Part shown: positions 9,941 through 21,504 of the stretch, one piece after another
Layout: every line of letters starts with the position of its first letter
Position numbering within the stretch: position 1 is the first letter of the stretch
Origin: Escherichia coli
GTDB lineage: Bacteria; Pseudomonadota; Gammaproteobacteria; Enterobacterales; Enterobacteriaceae
NCBI RefSeq assembly: GCF_009931435.1
Contig: NZ_CP043414.1
Direction: 5' to 3' (one strand)
Length of the DNA: 64,000 nucleotides
Position numbers and translations under genes: made by a program
The notes under the pieces: model-generated
The model's input: the letters and a program-made list of their open reading frames with translations, nothing else
Databases searched by the model: none
Told to the model about the DNA's origin: nothing

Positions 9941-11071
9941 TTAGCGAGTCAGGTCGTCGAAAAACTTCTTCACACCATCAAAGAAGCTCTTTGAGCGCGG
10001 GCTGTTGTGCTCGCCGGTTGGGCCACCGAAGCTTTCTTGCAGCTCTTGCAGCAGCTGTTTCTGCTTCTCGTTCAGGCCTACCGGTGTTTCGACGACAACG
10101 CGGCACAGCAAATCACCCTGTGCGCCACCGCGGACAGACTTGACGCCTTTACCGCGCATACGGAACAGCTTACCGGTCTGGGTTTCGCCAGGCACTTTCA
10201 GTTTGACGCGACCATCAAGAGTCGGTACTTCGATTTCGCCACCCAGCGCCGCCATAGCGAAGTTGATCGGGACTTCGCAATACAGGTTGTTGCCTTCACG
10301 CTCGAAAATCGGGTGCTGTTTAACCTGAACCTGAACGTACAGATCGCCTGCCGGTGCGCCATGCTCGCCCGCTTCACCTTCGCCCGCAAGACGGATGCGG
10401 TCTCCAGTGTCCACTCCTGCCGGGATTTTAACGGACAGCGTTTTGCTGCGCTCAACACGACCATGACCATGACATTTGTTGCACGGATCTTTGATCAGCG
10501 TACCGCGGCCCTGACAGTGTGGACAGGTCTGCTGTACAGCGAAGAAGCCCTGGCGCATCTGCACCTGACCAGAGCCATGACAGGTCGGACAGGTCTGCGG
10601 CTGTGTACCTGGTTTTGCACCGCTACCGTGGCAAACGTCACACTCTTCCAGAGTCGGAATGCGGATCTCTTTGGTCACGCCACGTACAGCTTCTTCGAGG
10701 GTGAGCTCCATGTTATAGCGTAAATCAGCACCGCGCGCCGCACGTTGACGACCACGTCCGCCGCCAAAAATATCGCCGAAAACGTCACCAAAAATATCGC
10801 TGAAGTCTGCGCCGCCGCCAAAACCGCCGCCGCCCATGCCGCCTTGCTCAAACGCAGCATGACCATACTGATCGTATGCCGCACGTTTTTGCGAGTCGGT
10901 CAGAACTTCATAAGCTTCCTTGATCTCTTTAAATTTCGCCTCGGCCTCTTTGTCACCCTGGTTACGGTCCGGGTGGTATTTCATGGCCAGGCGTTTGTAG
11001 GCCTTTTTGATTTCACGCTCTTCCGCTGTTTTGGAAACGCCTAAAATCTCGTAATAATCTTGCTTAGCCAT
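9941..11071 (-). CDS. dnaJ: Hsp40 co-chaperone DnaJ
   Basis: [38 protein letters not shown]-domain, Gly/Phe-rich region, four CxxCxGxG zinc-finger repeats; 376 aa. Confidence 0.97.
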
Positions 11072-11159
11072 CTTTTTTAAATTGCCCCTAGATGAATGCA
11101 CGGGCGGAGAGGAAATTCCCCTTCGCCCGTGTCAGTATAATTACCCGTTTATAGGGCGA

Positions 11160-13076
11160 TTATTTTTTGTCTTTGACTTCTTCAAATTCAGCGTCGACAA
11201 CATCGTCATCTTTCGCGTTGTTTGCAGAAGCATCAGCACCGGCAGTCTGCTGCTGGGCATGTTGCTGCTGGGCGATTTCCATCAGTTTCTGGGAAACCTG
11301 TGCCAGTTCCTGCATTTTCGCTTCGATAGCGGCTTTGTCTTCACCTTTCAGAGCAGTTTCCAGTGCAGTCAGCGCAGACTCGATAGCAGTTTTGTCGTCA
11401 GCCGGCAGTTTGTCGCCTGCTTCTTCAACCTGCTTACGGGTGCTGTGCAGCAGATGGTCGCCCTGGTTGCGAGTCTGTACCAGCTCTTCAAACTTACGGT
11501 CAGCTTCGGCGTTAGCTTCTGCGTCGCGTACCATTTTCTGGATTTCATCTTCGTTCAGACCAGAAGAAGCCTTGATGGTGATCTTCTGCTCTTTACCGCT
11601 GTTTTTATCTTTCGCGGAAACGTGCAGGATACCGTCAGCATCGATATCGAAGGTAACTTCGATCTGCGGCATACCGCGCGGTGCCGGGTTGATACCATCC
11701 AGGTTGAACTGACCCAGAGATTTGTTATCAGCTGCACGTTTACGTTCACCCTGCAGCACGTGGATGGTTACCGCAGACTGGTTATCTTCAGCGGTAGAGA
11801 ACACCTGGCTGTGCTTGGTCGGGATAGTGGTGTTTTTCGCGATCAGCGTCGTCATCACACCGCCCATGGTTTCGATACCCAGAGACAGCGGGGTAACGTC
11901 CAGCAGCAGTACGTCTTTTACGTCACCAGTCAGAACACCACCCTGAACAGCAGCGCCGATTGCTACAGCTTCGTCCGGGTTAACGTCTTTACGCGGCTCT
12001 TTACCAAAGAATTCAGCAACTTTCTTCTGAACCATTGGCATACGAGTCTGACCACCCACGAGGATAACGTCGTCGATATCAGATACGGACAGGCCAGCGT
12101 CCTGCAGTGCAACTTTCAGCGGCTCAATGGAACGGTTTACCAGGTCTTCAACCAGGCTTTCCAGTTTCGCACGAGTCACTTTGATGTTCATGTGTTTCGG
12201 ACCGGTCGCGTCTGCAGTGATATACGGCAGGTTAACGTCGGTCTGCTGAGCGGAAGAAAGTTCGATTTTCGCTTTTTCTGCCGCTTCTTTCAGGCGCTGC
12301 ATTGCCAGCGGATCGTTGCGCAGGTCAATGCCCTGATCTTTCTTGAATTCTTCAACCAGATAGTTAATCAGACGGCTGTCGAAGTCTTCACCACCCAGGT
12401 GGGTATCACCGTTGGTTGCCAGAACTTCGAAGGTTTTTTCGCCGTCAACTTCGTCGATTTCGATAATAGAAATATCGAAAGTACCACCACCCAGGTCATA
12501 AACCGCGATAGTACGGTTGCCAGTACCTTTGTCCAGACCATAAGCCAGCGCAGCTGCGGTCGGTTCGTTGATGATACGTTTTACTTCCAGACCAGCGATA
12601 CGGCCTGCGTCTTTGGTTGCCTGACGCTGAGCATCGTTAAAGTATGCCGGTACGGTAATAACAGCTTCAGTTACCGGTTCGCCCAGGTAATCTTCCGCGG
12701 TTTTCTTCATTTTTTTCAGCACTTCAGCAGAAATCTGCGGCGGTGCCATTTTTTGGCCTTTAACTTCGACCCAAGCGTCGCCGTTATCAGCAGCAATAAT
12801 TTTGAACGGCATGATGGAAACATCACGCTGTACTTCTTCGTCCTGGAAGCGGCGGCCAATCAGGCGTTTAATCGCAAACAGGGTGTTTTGCGGGTTCGTC
12901 ACTGCCTGACGTTTAGCCGGCTGACCAACCAGAGTTTCACCATCCTGGGTATAGGCAATGATAGAAGGCGTGGTGCGATCGCCTTCGGCGTTCTCCAGCA
13001 CTCGCGGAGTGGTGCCATCCATAATCGCTACACAAGAGTTGGTAGTACCCAGGTCGATACCAATTATTTTACCCAT
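11160..13076 (-). CDS. dnaK: Hsp70 chaperone DnaK
   Basis: [21 protein letters not shown] ... EEVKDKK; 638 aa. Confidence 0.98.
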
Positions 13077-13119
13077 CTAAACGTCTCCACTATATATTCG
13101 GTCATCATGTGGTTGTGAG

Positions 13120-13230
13120 TCTGTAATAGGGGCGAAACGTCTGGTTTCAACTGCCCAATTTCATTTTTTTGCAGACTCACTCACTGCGGTTGACTACTAA
13201 ATGGGGTCGTAACCCACGTCATCAAGGGGG
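13120..13230 (-). promoter_or_regulatory. dnaK sigma-32 heat-shock promoters P1/P2
   Basis: Minus-strand CTTGATG...CCCCATTTA and TTGAAAC...CCCCTATTA elements matching sigma-32 -35/-10 consensus upstream of dnaK. Confidence 0.7.
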
Positions 13231-13451
13231 AGATGCAAAAATTTTTTGTGCTTTTGCGCAGAAATTTCGCGATATGCCAGAACAAGACACGAAACTGACA
13301 GCAATTTTATTCATATAAAGAATGAATGGCAGCCAAGACATTCATAGAAAAATTGTAATAAAAAGAAAATATTACGTACCTGAATCTTCTCTTTATCAGC
13401 AGTAAACTAGTGGGTATTCATCCCCTACCTCTCCCCACTAAGAGAATACTT

Positions 13452-13856
13452 ATGAAATCCGTTTTTACGCTTTCCGCCAGCCTGGCAATTAGCCTGTTGC
13501 TTTGCTGCACAGCGCAGGCAAACGACCATAAAATCCTCGGCGTCATTGCCATGCCGCGTAACGAAACCAACGATCTGGCGCTGAAACTTCCTGTTTGTCG
13601 CATTGTTAAACGCATTCAACTCACTGCCGACCATGGCGATTTACAGTTAAGTGGTGCATCGGTTTATTTCAAAGCCGCCCGTAGCGCCAGTCAGAGCCTG
13701 AATATTCCTTCAGAAATAAAAGAAGGGCAAACCACTGACTGGATCAACATTAACAGCGATAACGACAATAAACGCTGCGTCTCAAAAATCACCTTTTCCG
13801 GCCATACGGTGAACTCATCGGATATGGCCACGCTGAAAATTATCGGCGACGACTAA
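13452..13856 (+). CDS. yaaI: DUF2541 periplasmic protein YaaI
   Basis: 134 aa with signal peptide [23 protein letters not shown]; conserved position next to dnaK. Confidence 0.85.
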
Positions 13857-13881
13857 CGCCAGAATATAGAAGCCACAAAAA

Positions 13882-14595
13882 ATGAATGTTAATTACCTGA
13901 ATGATTCAGATCTGGATTTTCTCCAGCATTGTAGTGAGGAACAATTGGCAAATTTCGCCCGGCTGCTCACCCATAATGAAAAAGGCAAAACTCGCCTCTC
14001 CAGCGTACTGATGCGCAACGAACTGTTTAAATCGATGGAAGGACATCCCGAGCAACATCGCCGCAACTGGCAGCTGATTGCCGGAGAATTACAGCATTTT
14101 GGTGGCGATAGTATCGCCAACAAACTGCGTGGACACGGTAAATTGTATCGGGCCATTTTGCTCGATGTTTCAAAACGATTGAAGCTGAAAGCCGACAAAG
14201 AGATGTCTACGTTTGAAATTGAGCAACAGTTACTGGAACAATTTCTGCGTAATACCTGGAAGAAAATGGACGAGGAACATAAGCAGGAGTTTCTGCACGC
14301 GGTCGATGCCAGGGTGAATGAGCTGGAAGAGCTGCTGCCGCTGCTGATGAAAGACAAATTATTGGCAAAAGGCGTGTCGCATTTGCTTTCCAGCCAATTG
14401 ACCCGCATTTTACGCACCCACGCAGCAATGAGCGTACTTGGGCATGGTTTGCTGCGCGGCGCGGGGCTGGGAGGCCCTGTAGGCGCGGCACTAAATGGGG
14501 TTAAAGCGGTCAGCGGCAGCGCCTATCGCGTGACGATTCCAGCCGTACTGCAAATCGCCTGCCTGCGCCGGATGGTTAGTGCCACTCAGGTCTGA
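13882..14595 (+). CDS. yaaW: UPF0174 protein YaaW
   Basis: 237-aa ORF in conserved position between yaaI and satP. Confidence 0.85.
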   Translation: MNVNYLNDSDLDFLQHCSEEQLANFARLLTHNEKGKTRLSSVLMRNELFKSMEGHPEQHRRNWQLIAGELQHFGGDSIANKLRGHGKLYRAILLDVSKRLKLKADKEMSTFEIEQQLLEQFLRNTWKKMDEEHKQEFLHAVDARVNELEELLPLLMKDKLLAKGVSHLLSSQLTRILRTHAAMSVLGHGLLRGAGLGGPVGAALNGVKAVSGSAYRVTIPAVLQIACLRRMVSATQV

Positions 14596-14743
14596 TACCG
14601 GAAACCGGGGAAAATTTTCATTTTCCCTTCAAAAGATCGTAGACACTGCCCCACTGGCTGATTATTATGCCGCGCCCTGAAAACACTACAGTTATTCAGG
14701 GAAATTATTTCACCATTCATTCGATGATGATTTTTGAGGAATT

Positions 14744-15310
14744 ATGGGCAACACTAAGTTGGCTAATCCGGCACCGCTGGGCCTGATGGGCTTCGGCATG
14801 ACCACCATTCTGCTTAACCTGCACAACGTGGGTTATTTCGCTCTTGACGGTATTATTCTTGCAATGGGCATTTTCTACGGCGGCATCGCGCAAATTTTTG
14901 CTGGTCTGCTGGAGTACAAAAAAGGCAATACTTTCGGTTTAACCGCATTCACCTCTTACGGTTCTTTCTGGCTGACGCTGGTTGCGATTCTGCTGATGCC
15001 GAAACTGGGTCTGACCGATGCGCCAAATGCACAGTTCCTTGGTGTCTACCTTGGTCTGTGGGGCGTATTTACGCTGTTTATGTTCTTCGGCACGCTGAAA
15101 GGCGCACGCGTTCTGCAATTCGTTTTCTTTAGCCTGACCGTGCTGTTTGCCCTGCTGGCGATCGGTAACATTGTCGGTAATGCCGCGATCATCCACTTTG
15201 CCGGCTGGATTGGTCTGATCTGCGGTGCCAGCGCAATCTATCTGGCGATGGGTGAAGTACTGAACGAGCAGTTTGGTCGCACCGTTCTGCCGATTGGTGA
15301 ATCCCACTAA
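14744..15310 (+). CDS. satP: acetate/succinate:H+ symporter SatP (YaaH)
   Basis: 188-aa six-TM protein MGNTKLANPAPLGLMGFGMTTILLNLHNVGYF. Confidence 0.93.
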   Translation: MGNTKLANPAPLGLMGFGMTTILLNLHNVGYFALDGIILAMGIFYGGIAQIFAGLLEYKKGNTFGLTAFTSYGSFWLTLVAILLMPKLGLTDAPNAQFLGVYLGLWGVFTLFMFFGTLKGARVLQFVFFSLTVLFALLAIGNIVGNAAIIHFAGWIGLICGASAIYLAMGEVLNEQFGRTVLPIGESH

Positions 15311-15320
15311 TTGTTTTGAG

Positions 15321-15347
15321 ATCCCCCCGCTCGGGGGGATTTTTTTA
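15321..15347 (+). terminator. satP rho-independent terminator (overlaps mog stop)
   Basis: atccccccgc-tcggggggat hairpin followed by a T7 run. Confidence 0.7.
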
Positions 15348-15932
15348 TTCGCTAACTTCGCGTCTTGCACTCTTCGGTCTGAATGCTGCAACTACTTCCG
15401 GTGCCGTTTCAACGTATGGCCCTTCCAGCAACTGAATGCAGTACGGTACGCTGGCAAAAATACCGTGTACCACAACGTTACCCTCTGCATCCTTCACCCC
15501 TTCCAGCGTCTCTTTAATAGACTTCGGCTGACCGGGTAAGTTAAGGATTAGTGCTTGTTTGCGAATCACGCCCACCTGGCGCGAAAGGATCGCGGTTGGA
15601 ACAAAATGCAGGCTAATTTGGCGCATCTGTTCACCAAAGCCCGGCATCTCGCGGTCCGCTACTGCCAGCGTCGCATCGGGCGTTACGTCACGACGCGCCG
15701 GGCCAGTTCCGCCCGTGGTGAGCACCAGATGGCAACTCATTTCATCCACCAGCTCACACAACGTTTGCTCGATGATCGCCTGCTCATCGGGGATTAAGCG
15801 GGTTTCCAGTTCAAACGGCGTGGTTAGCGCCGATGTCAGCCATTCTTCCAGCGCTGGGATGCCTTTATCCTGATAAACGCCGCTGGATGCGCGATCAGAG
15901 ATGGAAACTAAGCCAATACGTAAAGTATTCAT
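15345..15932 (-). CDS. mog: molybdopterin adenylyltransferase Mog
   Basis: 195 aa MNTLRIGLVSISDRASSGVYQDKGIPALEEW. Confidence 0.95.
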   Translation of the reverse strand: MNTLRIGLVSISDRASSGVYQDKGIPALEEWLTSALTTPFELETRLIPDEQAIIEQTLCELVDEMSCHLVLTTGGTGPARRDVTPDATLAVADREMPGFGEQMRQISLHFVPTAILSRQVGVIRKQALILNLPGQPKSIKETLEGVKDAEGNVVVHGIFASVPYCIQLLEGPYVETAPEVVAAFRPKSARREVSE

Positions 15933-16012
15933 CAAGATTTTTCCGTTTAAACAGTCTCGTTAAACAGAATGATACACTGCGAAGGGAGTGACAGACAGGC
16001 TTCAGAAGAGGT

Positions 16013-19568: not shown

Positions 19569-19672
19569 GCCGGATGCGGCGTGAACGCCTTATCCGGCCT
19601 ACAAAAGCATGCAGATTCAATATATTGCAGAATTAACGTAGGCCTGATAAGACGCGCCAGCGTCGCATCAGG
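19569..19672. repeat. REP/BIME element (pair of inverted REP palindromes)
   Basis: gccggatgcggcgtgaacgccttatccggcctac and inverted copy gtaggcctgataagacgcgccagcgtcgcatcaggc. Confidence 0.85.
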
Positions 19673-19707
19673 CGCTGAATGCCGGATTGTTACCCGGCAT
19701 TTGTCAT

Positions 19708-20004
19708 TTAGCGGTGATGTTTGCCTGGACCATGACCGCCGTGATGATCATGAGGAGCTTTCTTATGGTGGCGCGGCGGTGGCGGCGGTCCGTGTGGGTG
19801 CCAGCGATTGCCTCGCCATTCATAATGTTGTTTCCACCAGCCGTGGTCGCGCCAGTGACCGCCATCCCAGTAATAGCCACGATTATCACGATCGCCTATC
19901 TGTAATTTTACTGACGGGACTAACGTAATTTCCGCAGCCTGTGCTGCCATGGGAGCGACCAGAACCAGGGAAAGTGCGAGTACGATAGATTGCATCTTTT
20001 TCAC
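19708..20004 (-). CDS. yaaX: His/Gly/Trp-rich secreted protein YaaX
   Basis: 98 aa [23 protein letters not shown]...[14 protein letters not shown]. Confidence 0.9.
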
Positions 20005-20217
20005 AGGTTACTCCTTTTATCATTGCCCGTTATGGGTCGATATCCGGAGATTACGCGATGAGAACGGCGGTTGTTATTCTCCGCAATCCTAATCTCTAAG
20101 TTACCGCATTTATTGAGAATTTCTCCTTTTTTCCTGTCGTTTTTCTCCATATTTTCTTCATAAAAAAGCCGGGCTGTATAAAAGCAAACCCGGCCTGATT
20201 GAGATAATGAATAGATG

Positions 20218-21504
20218 TTACTGATGATTCATCATCAATTTACGCAACGCAGCAAAATCGGCGGGCAGATTATGCGAAAGCAAGGGTAAATCAGCACGTT
20301 CTGCCAGCTCTTTTGGCAGATCCAATGTTTCACCGAGAATCGCTTCCACGCTCTCTTTAAATTTCGCCGGATGCGCGGTGCCGAGGAACAAGCCATATTC
20401 GCCTGGATGCAACTGGTCACGCAGCGCACGATAAGCTACGGCAGCGTGCGGCTCCGAGGTATAGCCCAGCGCTTTTAACTCACGCATTGTCTGTTGCGTG
20501 GTTTCATCATCTACGGCTGCATAACCCAGCTCTTTCAGTTGCCAGATTTTGCGGCGGAACAACTCTTCCACACGCGGCCAGTTGTTCGGTTGACTCACGT
20601 CCATCGCGTTGGATAACGTCGCCTGAGTCGCTTTAGGGGACCACTGCCCGTCGTGCAGGAAACGCGGCACTGTATCGTTCACGTTAGTGGCAGCGATAAA
20701 ACGCTTCACCGGCAGGCCAAGAGATTTCGCCAGCAGGCCCGCAGTCAAATCGCCGAAGTTACCGCTCGGCACCGAGACAACCAGCTGGTTGCGCGCTTCC
20801 TGCGGCAGCTGCGCAACAGCTTCAAAGTAGTAGCAAATCTGCGCCAGCAAACGGCTGATGTTAATGGAGTTAGCAGAGTTTAGCCCCAGCGCCACTTTCA
20901 GTTCTTCATCATCAAACGCCTGCTTCACCAGCGCCTGACAGGCATCGAAATCGCCGTCGATGGCAACAGTTTCAATATTGCCGCCCAATGTACAGAACAG
21001 TTTTTCTTGCAGTGGACTGATTTTGCCTCTTGGATAGAGGATAACCACTTTCACATTCGGTAAACCGTAGAAAGCATGAGCCACTGCCGCTCCAGTATCA
21101 CCGGAGGTCGCGGTCAGAATGGTCACTGGCTTATCGCCCGCAATATGGGTCAGCATTTGTGCCATAAAGCGACCGCCGAAATCTTTAAATGCCAGTGTTG
21201 GCCCATGAAACAATTCCAGACAACCGACATCGCTTTCAACATTGGCGACCGGAGCCGGGAAGGCAAACGCCGCGCGCACGCGCTCTTCCAGTATTTCCTG
21301 CGGGATCTCATCACCAATAAACGCCGAGAGGATCTTCGCACTGCGGGTGACAAAATCCAGCTTCAGCATCTCATCAATTTCAGTCAGGCTGAATTCCGGC
21401 AGGTCGTGCGGGAAAAACAGCCCCTGATTTTTGCCCAACCCCTGGGTTACGGCTTGCGCAAAGCTGACCTGCTCATTGTGATCTTTCAGATTGTAGAGTT
21501 TCAT
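20218..21504 (-). CDS. thrC: threonine synthase
   Basis: 428 aa MKLYNLKDHNEQVSFAQAVTQGLGKNQGLFFPHDLPEF. Confidence 0.98.
   Translation of the reverse strand: MKLYNLKDHNEQVSFAQAVTQGLGKNQGLFFPHDLPEFSLTEIDEMLKLDFVTRSAKILSAFIGDEIPQEILEERVRAAFAFPAPVANVESDVGCLELFHGPTLAFKDFGGRFMAQMLTHIAGDKPVTILTATSGDTGAAVAHAFYGLPNVKVVILYPRGKISPLQEKLFCTLGGNIETVAIDGDFDACQALVKQAFDDEELKVALGLNSANSINISRLLAQICYYFEAVAQLPQEARNQLVVSVPSGNFGDLTAGLLAKSLGLPVKRFIAATNVNDTVPRFLHDGQWSPKATQATLSNAMDVSQPNNWPRVEELFRRKIWQLKELGYAAVDDETTQQTMRELKALGYTSEPHAAVAYRALRDQLHPGEYGLFLGTAHPAKFKESVEAILGETLDLPKELAERADLPLLSHNLPADFAALRKLMMNHQ

Follow-up and report, generated by a model that had tools for sequence, protein, structure and literature searches.

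The long open reading frame (ORF) that runs antisense to yaaW in the stretch of Escherichia coli DNA analysed here is real, and it is already known and annotated as mbiA (formerly htgA, b0012), one of the very few textbook-style cases offered for bacterial gene birth by overprinting. We consider it probable, at roughly two chances in three, that mbiA is a by-product, or 'shadow', ORF of yaaW, possibly with low-level and near-neutral expression. An earlier note on this stretch had suspected that the frame might be an artefact, and it was right to be suspicious: the length of the frame lies within chance, and changes that would alter the MbiA protein are not depleted.

The antisense frame and its K-12 counterpart

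The window, that is, the whole stretch of DNA that was analysed, comprises 64,000 nucleotides. Its features at this locus are as follows.

13882..14595, plus strand: yaaW coding sequence, 237 amino acids, the 'mother' gene, with Ubiq_cyt_C_chap and DUF3944 domains; JukA family
13893..14417, minus strand: antisense ORF, the mbiA/htgA allele of the window strain; 174 codons, from GTG (14417-14415) to TAA (13895-13893)
13896..14522, minus strand: stop-free stretch of the mbiA frame, 209 codons, with an in-frame TAG upstream at 14525-14523
14406..14408, minus strand: start ATG annotated for mbiA in K-12, the fourth codon of the window ORF
13452..13856, plus strand: yaaI (DUF2541), a context gene upstream of yaaW and in its orientation, with 25 nt between the two

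These coordinates confirm that the 174-codon minus-strand frame lies entirely within yaaW, as the earlier note had stated. The gene order around it is dnaK, yaaI, yaaW, satP, mog and tal, with yaaI a probable operon partner of yaaW. A 1.7-kb piece of the window containing the locus has matches in 5,424 of 5,426 complete E. coli genomes, and its identity is 99.6% with strain MFDS1022581 and 97.7% with K-12-like records. In MFDS1022581, the closest complete genome, yaaA and yaaX are separated by an IS621 copy with a frameshift (19747..20726 in the numbering of that sequence); judged from ORF spacing alone (yaaA to 19555, thrC from 20218), the window has no room for IS621 at about 19600-20200.

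In the K-12 record, mbiA (b0012) occupies 10830..11315 on the opposite strand, inside yaaW at 10643..11356. This interval maps one to one to positions 13923..14408 of the window, on the same strand and in the same frame, and K-12 MbiA is identical to residues 4-164 of the window ORF at 159 of 161 positions (E = 1e-111). The mapping and the identity together bear out the proposal that the frame sits at the place of mbiA/htgA. Compared with K-12 mbiA, the window ORF begins three codons earlier, at a GTG without a ribosome-binding site; there is no ATG, GTG or TTG in the frame between the upstream TAG (14523-14525) and this GTG at 14417. It is also ten codons longer at its end, where position 13923 is C and not T: Leu14 of yaaW is encoded by CTC rather than CTT, so that the TGA of K-12 becomes a Trp codon. 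The mbiA ATG is formed opposite the last base of the yaaW Arg176 codon (CGC) and the AT of Ile177, and it was found in all 18 Escherichia sequences as well as in some relatives that do not have the ORF.

The 174 residues of MbiA include 41 serines (23.6%) and 16 cysteines (9.2%), with 1.1% glycine, no histidine and a pI of 9.6, so the description of the ORF as rich in Ser and Cys was accurate. In the mbiA-type antisense frame of 39 neighbouring genes, Ser makes up 17% and Cys 3.5% of the residues, and in the real proteins of the region 5.6% and 1.1%. Because antisense frames of this type are generally high in both residues, the composition of MbiA is the usual signature of the frame, exaggerated by the makeup of YaaW. 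MbiA had no family match in Pfam, NCBIfam or PADLOC, and a search of 5.8 billion protein clusters returned four matches, all of them E. coli yaaW loci. One of these, a 201-aa match with 53% identity (P0002), was considered as an independent homologue and ruled out, as its source is an indel-ridden E. coli B2 assembly in which the gene caller chose the antisense frame of the yaaW locus; matches P0003 and P0004 derive from that locus too, as chimeric or frameshifted fragments. AlphaFold2, run on MbiA without an alignment, returned a mean pLDDT of 28 and no secondary structure, which for a single sequence is weak evidence. Orphan proteins often model poorly.

With regard to yaaW itself, all the E. 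coli records examined carry the RefSeq/PGAP name 'msyB: acidic protein MsyB' for the gene. The source of the name is NCBIfam model NF007593, an equivalog (PRK10236.1) that aligns with the whole of YaaW at 520 bits. The model matched by the real MsyB (K-12 b1051, 124 aa) is another one, NF008544, and BLASTP shows no similarity between MsyB and YaaW (E = 2.6); YaaW is a basic protein with a pI of 9.4. NF007593 thus looks mislabelled and appears to be spreading a wrong gene name to thousands of genomes. Along its entire length, YaaW also fits the PADLOC models for JukA (E = 1.3e-57), the protein that acts as sensor in the 'jumbo phage killer' defence system. DUF2541 proteins, the family of YaaI, form putative operons with jukA (bioRxiv 10.1101/2022.09.17.508391); YaaI itself matched no PADLOC model.

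Length, distribution and end points of the frame

Computed from their coordinates, the yaaW and mbiA frames share their third codon positions, with positions 1 and 2 swapped. Because the third positions of the two strands coincide, antisense stops can arise at only two kinds of junction: where a yaaW Tyr codon (TAN) follows a codon that ends in T or C, and where a His or Gln codon (CAN) follows a codon that ends in T. YaaW, which is rich in Leu, Glu, Lys and Gln, contains 26 potential stop junctions, at 19 of which the preceding codon ends in A or G; many of those 19 preceding codons (Glu, Gln, Lys and Trp) are unable to end in T.

We held the YaaW protein fixed and redrew its synonymous codons from regional codon usage in 30,000 trials. 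The longest stop-free run in the mbiA frame had a median of 116 codons, and runs of at least 209 and at least 174 codons appeared in 5.0% and 13% of trials, respectively; permuting the synonymous codons of yaaW itself gave 11% and 26%. Antisense runs that reach 174 codons or more without a stop occur in ten of the 40 intact genes in the surrounding 50 kb: dnaK (639 codons), deoA (282), deoB (280), ettA (259), dnaJ (242), deoD (240), tal (210), yaaW (209), yaaJ (192) and arcA (174). With the exception of yaaW, these runs occupy the frame in which antisense position 3 faces sense position 1. In the frame that mbiA uses, the run of yaaW is the longest of the 40 genes, and the next longest are those of dnaK (183) and gpmB (162). 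Although among the longest for its frame, the ORF stays well within the range that the YaaW sequence predicts. The earlier note had called the length unusual for a chance antisense ORF, a view that fails both against resampling, by which the ORF is no longer than the mother-gene sequence predicts (P = 0.05-0.26), and against the neighbourhood (10 of 40).

Highly expressed genes such as dnaK also have long 'shadow' antisense ORFs opposite them, and there too the lack of stops follows from which amino acids and codons the sense gene uses. They differ from the yaaW ORF in that they mostly use the frame in which antisense position 3 faces sense position 1, whereas in the yaaW ORF the third positions coincide, a type of frame in which long stop-free stretches are less common and are governed by the surroundings of Tyr, His and Gln codons. 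The window also has a 678-aa ORF at 11082..13118 on the plus strand, which is antisense to and spans the whole of dnaK (11160..13076, minus strand).

When species-representative genomes were scanned with YaaW, 17 loci were obtained. In three divergent Escherichia lineages with 86-89% nucleotide identity, namely a cryptic-clade 'E. coli', Escherichia sp. E1V33 and E. albertii (86%), the frame is open for 199, 209 and 183 codons, respectively, and the stop-free frame measures 183-209 codons in all 18 Escherichia sequences except that of Nissle (143). In Salmonella, three Citrobacter, four Kluyvera, Pseudescherichia vulneris and two others, this frame is broken by 5-9 stops and its longest run is 59-102 codons; no sampled genus outside Escherichia has an open frame of mbiA length. 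One junction in yaaW bears directly on this distribution.

14095..14100, plus strand: yaaW His72-Phe73; Phe73 lifts an antisense stop, a precondition for the long ORF

Most non-Escherichia orthologues, among them those of Salmonella, Citrobacter and Pseudescherichia, have His72-Tyr73 (CAY TAY) at this place, which imposes an antisense stop under any choice of codons. In Escherichia this obligatory stop is gone because residue 73 is Phe (Y73F). Delaye et al. 2008 (PMC2268670) proposed that htgA originated in the Escherichia/Shigella lineage, and the distribution found here agrees.

Within E. coli, the end of the frame varies. In 15 strains chosen across the identity range, with lengths counted from the GTG, the 174-codon form is present in eight strains, O157:H7 among them, a 164-codon form of the K-12 type in three, a 148-codon form in two and a 108-codon form in Nissle 1917. 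The shorter forms correspond to base changes at three codons of the window ORF.

13923..13925, minus strand: Trp codon (yaaW Leu14 CTC / Gln15 CAG); C to T at 13923 creates TGA, with the loss of 10 codons
13971..13973, minus strand: Trp codon (yaaW Thr30 ACC / His31 CAT); C to T at 13971 creates TGA, with the loss of 26 codons
14091..14093, minus strand: Cys codon (yaaW Leu70 TTA / Gln71 CAG); A to T at 14091 creates TGA, with the loss of 66 codons

We counted these alleles in the 5,426 complete genomes using 35-mers centred on the stop-creating base and a 28-base word, such that a match was possible only if the allele was present. The change at 13923, which is synonymous in yaaW and ends mbiA in K-12, is present in at least 1,501 genomes; that at 13971, also synonymous in yaaW, in at least 248, plus E. 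albertii; and that at 14091, which is the substitution L70F in YaaW, in at least 154 in all, including Nissle 1917. Phe70 is also found in the YaaW of Salmonella and some Kluyvera. The counts of 1,501, 248 and 154 are lower bounds because each 35-mer represents one local haplotype, and it follows that the 174-codon form is present in at most about 65% of sequenced E. coli. The ORF is therefore shorter than that of the window in more than a third of sequenced E. coli; far from being intact across the species with rare nonsense alleles, it has four end points in 15 strains. All three truncations fall within the C-terminal 38% of the ORF, which makes a functional N-terminal core of about 108 residues possible. 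In the strain set examined, no stop was found in the N-terminal 108 codons, where about 0.9 was expected, and this absence is not significant.

Selection on MbiA and on yaaW

We classed every possible single-base change in the overlap by its effect on YaaW, by its effect on MbiA and as a transition or transversion, and compared the changes that are possible with those that segregate. In the 18 Escherichia sequences, changes that are synonymous in yaaW and silent in MbiA were observed at 69 of 161 possible transitions and 11 of 65 possible transversions. Those that are synonymous in yaaW and alter MbiA (amino acid or stop) were observed at 19 of 33 transitions and 12 of 78 transversions, which makes 31 events, compared with 27.3 expected under neutrality. 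The resulting ratios are listed below, together with those for the same antisense frame of yaaI and satP, which served as controls in the same strains and for which no gene is proposed.

MbiA, whole overlap, 18 Escherichia: ratio 1.13 (95% CI 0.77-1.61)
MbiA, N-terminal 108 codons: ratio 0.90 (95% CI 0.53-1.45)
MbiA, C-terminal 66 codons: ratio 1.68 (95% CI 0.92-2.82)
MbiA, whole overlap, 15 E. coli alone: ratio 0.81 (95% CI 0.32-1.66)
yaaW, changes silent in MbiA that alter YaaW: ratio 0.22 (95% CI 0.08-0.48)
Control, same antisense frame of yaaI: ratio 1.47 (95% CI 0.93-2.21)
Control, same antisense frame of satP: ratio 1.30 (95% CI 0.59-2.47)

The ratio of 0.22 for yaaW indicates that the test has power on these data. 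For MbiA, the whole-overlap ratio of 1.13 (0.77-1.61) gives no sign of purifying selection beyond the constraint of the mother gene; it rests on 31 events, which exclude ratios below about 0.75 for the whole ORF and are compatible with weak or strain-specific selection. Resolution is limited by the geometry of the frames, as the coincidence of third positions means that just 111 of 337 possible yaaW-synonymous changes alter MbiA. Changes that are synonymous in yaaW and create a stop in MbiA occur at the neutral rate (2 observed, 1.96 expected), and two of the three possible stop-creating synonymous transitions are segregating.

Excess constraint at synonymous sites of yaaW, which the earlier note had proposed as a test of the antisense frame, was absent. 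Synonymous segregating changes per synonymous site number 0.265 in the overlap versus 0.204 in the rest of yaaW, and MbiA-altering changes show no depletion, although the synonymous-site test is blunt because most changes silent in yaaW are also silent in MbiA; the corresponding values are 0.288 for yaaI and, for satP, 0.14 over its first 85 codons. Conservation in such a frame may echo the mother gene alone, as both Delaye et al. 2008 (PMC2268670) and Mir and Schober (PMC4182739) pointed out.

The inference of function by Delaye et al. 2008 (PMC2268670) was based on distant outgroups, with which yaaW copies that contain htgA came out as evolving more slowly. Our own relative-rate test used outgroups that are close (Pseudescherichia vulneris and strain ESNIH1), and Salmonella and Citrobacter represented the lineage that lacks the ORF. 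Slower evolution of yaaW where htgA overlaps was not reproduced with these outgroups, and the direction was opposite to the published claim: the private-change ratio (m1/m2) of Escherichia versus Salmonella/Citrobacter was 1.28 at the nucleotide level for yaaW nucleotides 1-408 (13882..14289) and 3.1 at the protein level for the first 136 codons (8.9 in Escherichia versus 2.8, significant in 12 of 24 triples). In the flanking yaaI and satP, the ratio was 0.8-1.05. YaaW is, if anything, faster-evolving in Escherichia, which could reflect the evolution of a phage-sensor protein.

Expression reports and competing readings

The signals for expression of the antisense frame were examined in the window.

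14415..14421, minus strand: GTGGGTG, the sole Shine-Dalgarno-like sequence before the mbiA ATG; pairing -3.9 kcal/mol, weak

On the same scale, pairing with the anti-Shine-Dalgarno sequence is -6.2 kcal/mol for satP, -6.4 kcal/mol for dnaK and -0.9 kcal/mol for the GTG of mbiA. A simple consensus scan of the minus strand found no consensus sigma-70 promoter from 14417 to 14800, and its sole minus-strand match, at 13892-13863, lies downstream of the ORF. An Rfam search of 12500-16000 at a permissive threshold had no match. Judged from these signals, a weak ribosome-binding site and a missing consensus promoter would be compatible with expression, and neither excludes it.

Strand-specific stop mutants made by Fellner et al. 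in 2014 reportedly altered biofilm formation, and the name mbiA presumably derives from that phenotype, as 'modifier of biofilm'. A citing paper gives this work (FEMS Microbiol Lett 350:57) as the description of an mbiA/yaaW phenotype in enterohaemorrhagic E. coli (EHEC) EDL933. Missiakas et al. 1993, as cited by Delaye et al. 2008 (PMC2268670), studied htgA by cloning, Northern blots, protein labelling and promoter mapping. The heat-shock role first ascribed to htgA is disputed: Delaye et al. point to a later study that saw no sigma-32 induction, mention a re-annotation of the start codon and state that the existence of the gene "remains controversial". An intragenic htgA/yaaW promoter was reported to be active in vitro (PMC2731890), ExcludonFinder lists yaaW-mbiA among the divergent excludons in E. 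coli RNA-seq (PMC12288877), and the mbiA locus is absent from the main text of the EHEC translatome study of Neuhaus 2016.

These findings are best accommodated if mbiA is a shadow of yaaW. Phe73 removed the lone obligatory stop in the Escherichia lineage and opened the frame; the remaining potential stops open and close with ordinary variation in yaaW, which has since shortened the ORF more than once. The MbiA sequence drifts freely wherever yaaW permits, as the ratios near 1 and the common truncations suggest. MbiA, if it is made, would be at best the product of a young, nearly neutral proto-gene. The published antisense promoter and mutant phenotypes mean that low-level antisense transcription, and perhaps translation, may occur.

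Delaye 2008 (PMC2268670) and, reportedly, Fellner 2014 proposed instead that MbiA is the product of a real gene, recently born by overprinting in Escherichia/Shigella and weakly expressed from its own promoter inside yaaW, and that the protein modifies biofilm formation or metabolism. In this reading, its N-terminal 108 or so residues would be functional and its C terminus dispensable and polymorphic. The frame is indeed open for 183-209 codons in the Escherichia sequences (143 in Nissle) and in no other sampled genus, the ATG does not vary within Escherichia, the N-terminal 108 codons showed no truncation, K-12 retains the annotation, and a phenotype and a promoter have been reported. We nevertheless regard this reading as unlikely. 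The ratio of altering to silent changes is about 1, as is that of the N-terminal part (0.90, 0.53-1.45), and cannot be told apart from those of the control antisense frames, stop-creating changes arise at the neutral rate, the length is within chance, and the argument from a slower yaaW was not reproduced with close outgroups. The composition is extreme (16 Cys and 41 Ser in 174 residues), no fold is predicted, the ribosome-binding site is weak, and sigma-32 induction was not confirmed, according to Delaye et al. (PMC2268670). Embedded antisense genes described in EHEC (nog1/citC, pop/ompA, asa, laoB and ano) resemble mbiA in being young, taxon-restricted and placed inside an older gene, with claims of weak expression and subtle phenotypes. 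For the mbiA ORF, the selection tests run here lend no support to a function at the protein level.

It is also conceivable, if improbable, that the antisense transcript matters and the ORF is incidental, with collision or pairing with the yaaI-yaaW mRNA tuning a JukA-family gene in an 'excludon'-type arrangement. The listing of yaaW-mbiA by ExcludonFinder (PMC12288877) and the promoter activity in vitro (PMC2731890) fit such a role, and missing selection on the amino acids would be expected if the function were at the level of RNA or transcription. However, synonymous diversity in the overlap is not reduced and so gives no sign of sequence constraint on an RNA, neither an Rfam match nor, in the simple scan, a consensus promoter was found, and pervasive antisense transcription is common and mostly has no known function. 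More speculative still, and in our estimate very improbable, is a newborn MbiA in which the first 108 or so residues are key, expressed within and competing with yaaW as a JukA-family phage-sensor gene, such that the two strands would form a mutually exclusive switch that links a defence gene to a surface or biofilm phenotype.

The window adds nothing new to the mbiA locus, as the ORF was already known. Re-examined with thousands of genomes that were unavailable in 2008-2014, the evolutionary case for a functional protein fails, because the length is expected from YaaW, the sequence drifts neutrally and the form found in over a third of sequenced E. coli is shorter than that of the window. What the locus offers is thus not a discovery but a caution against treating long antisense ORFs as candidate genes.
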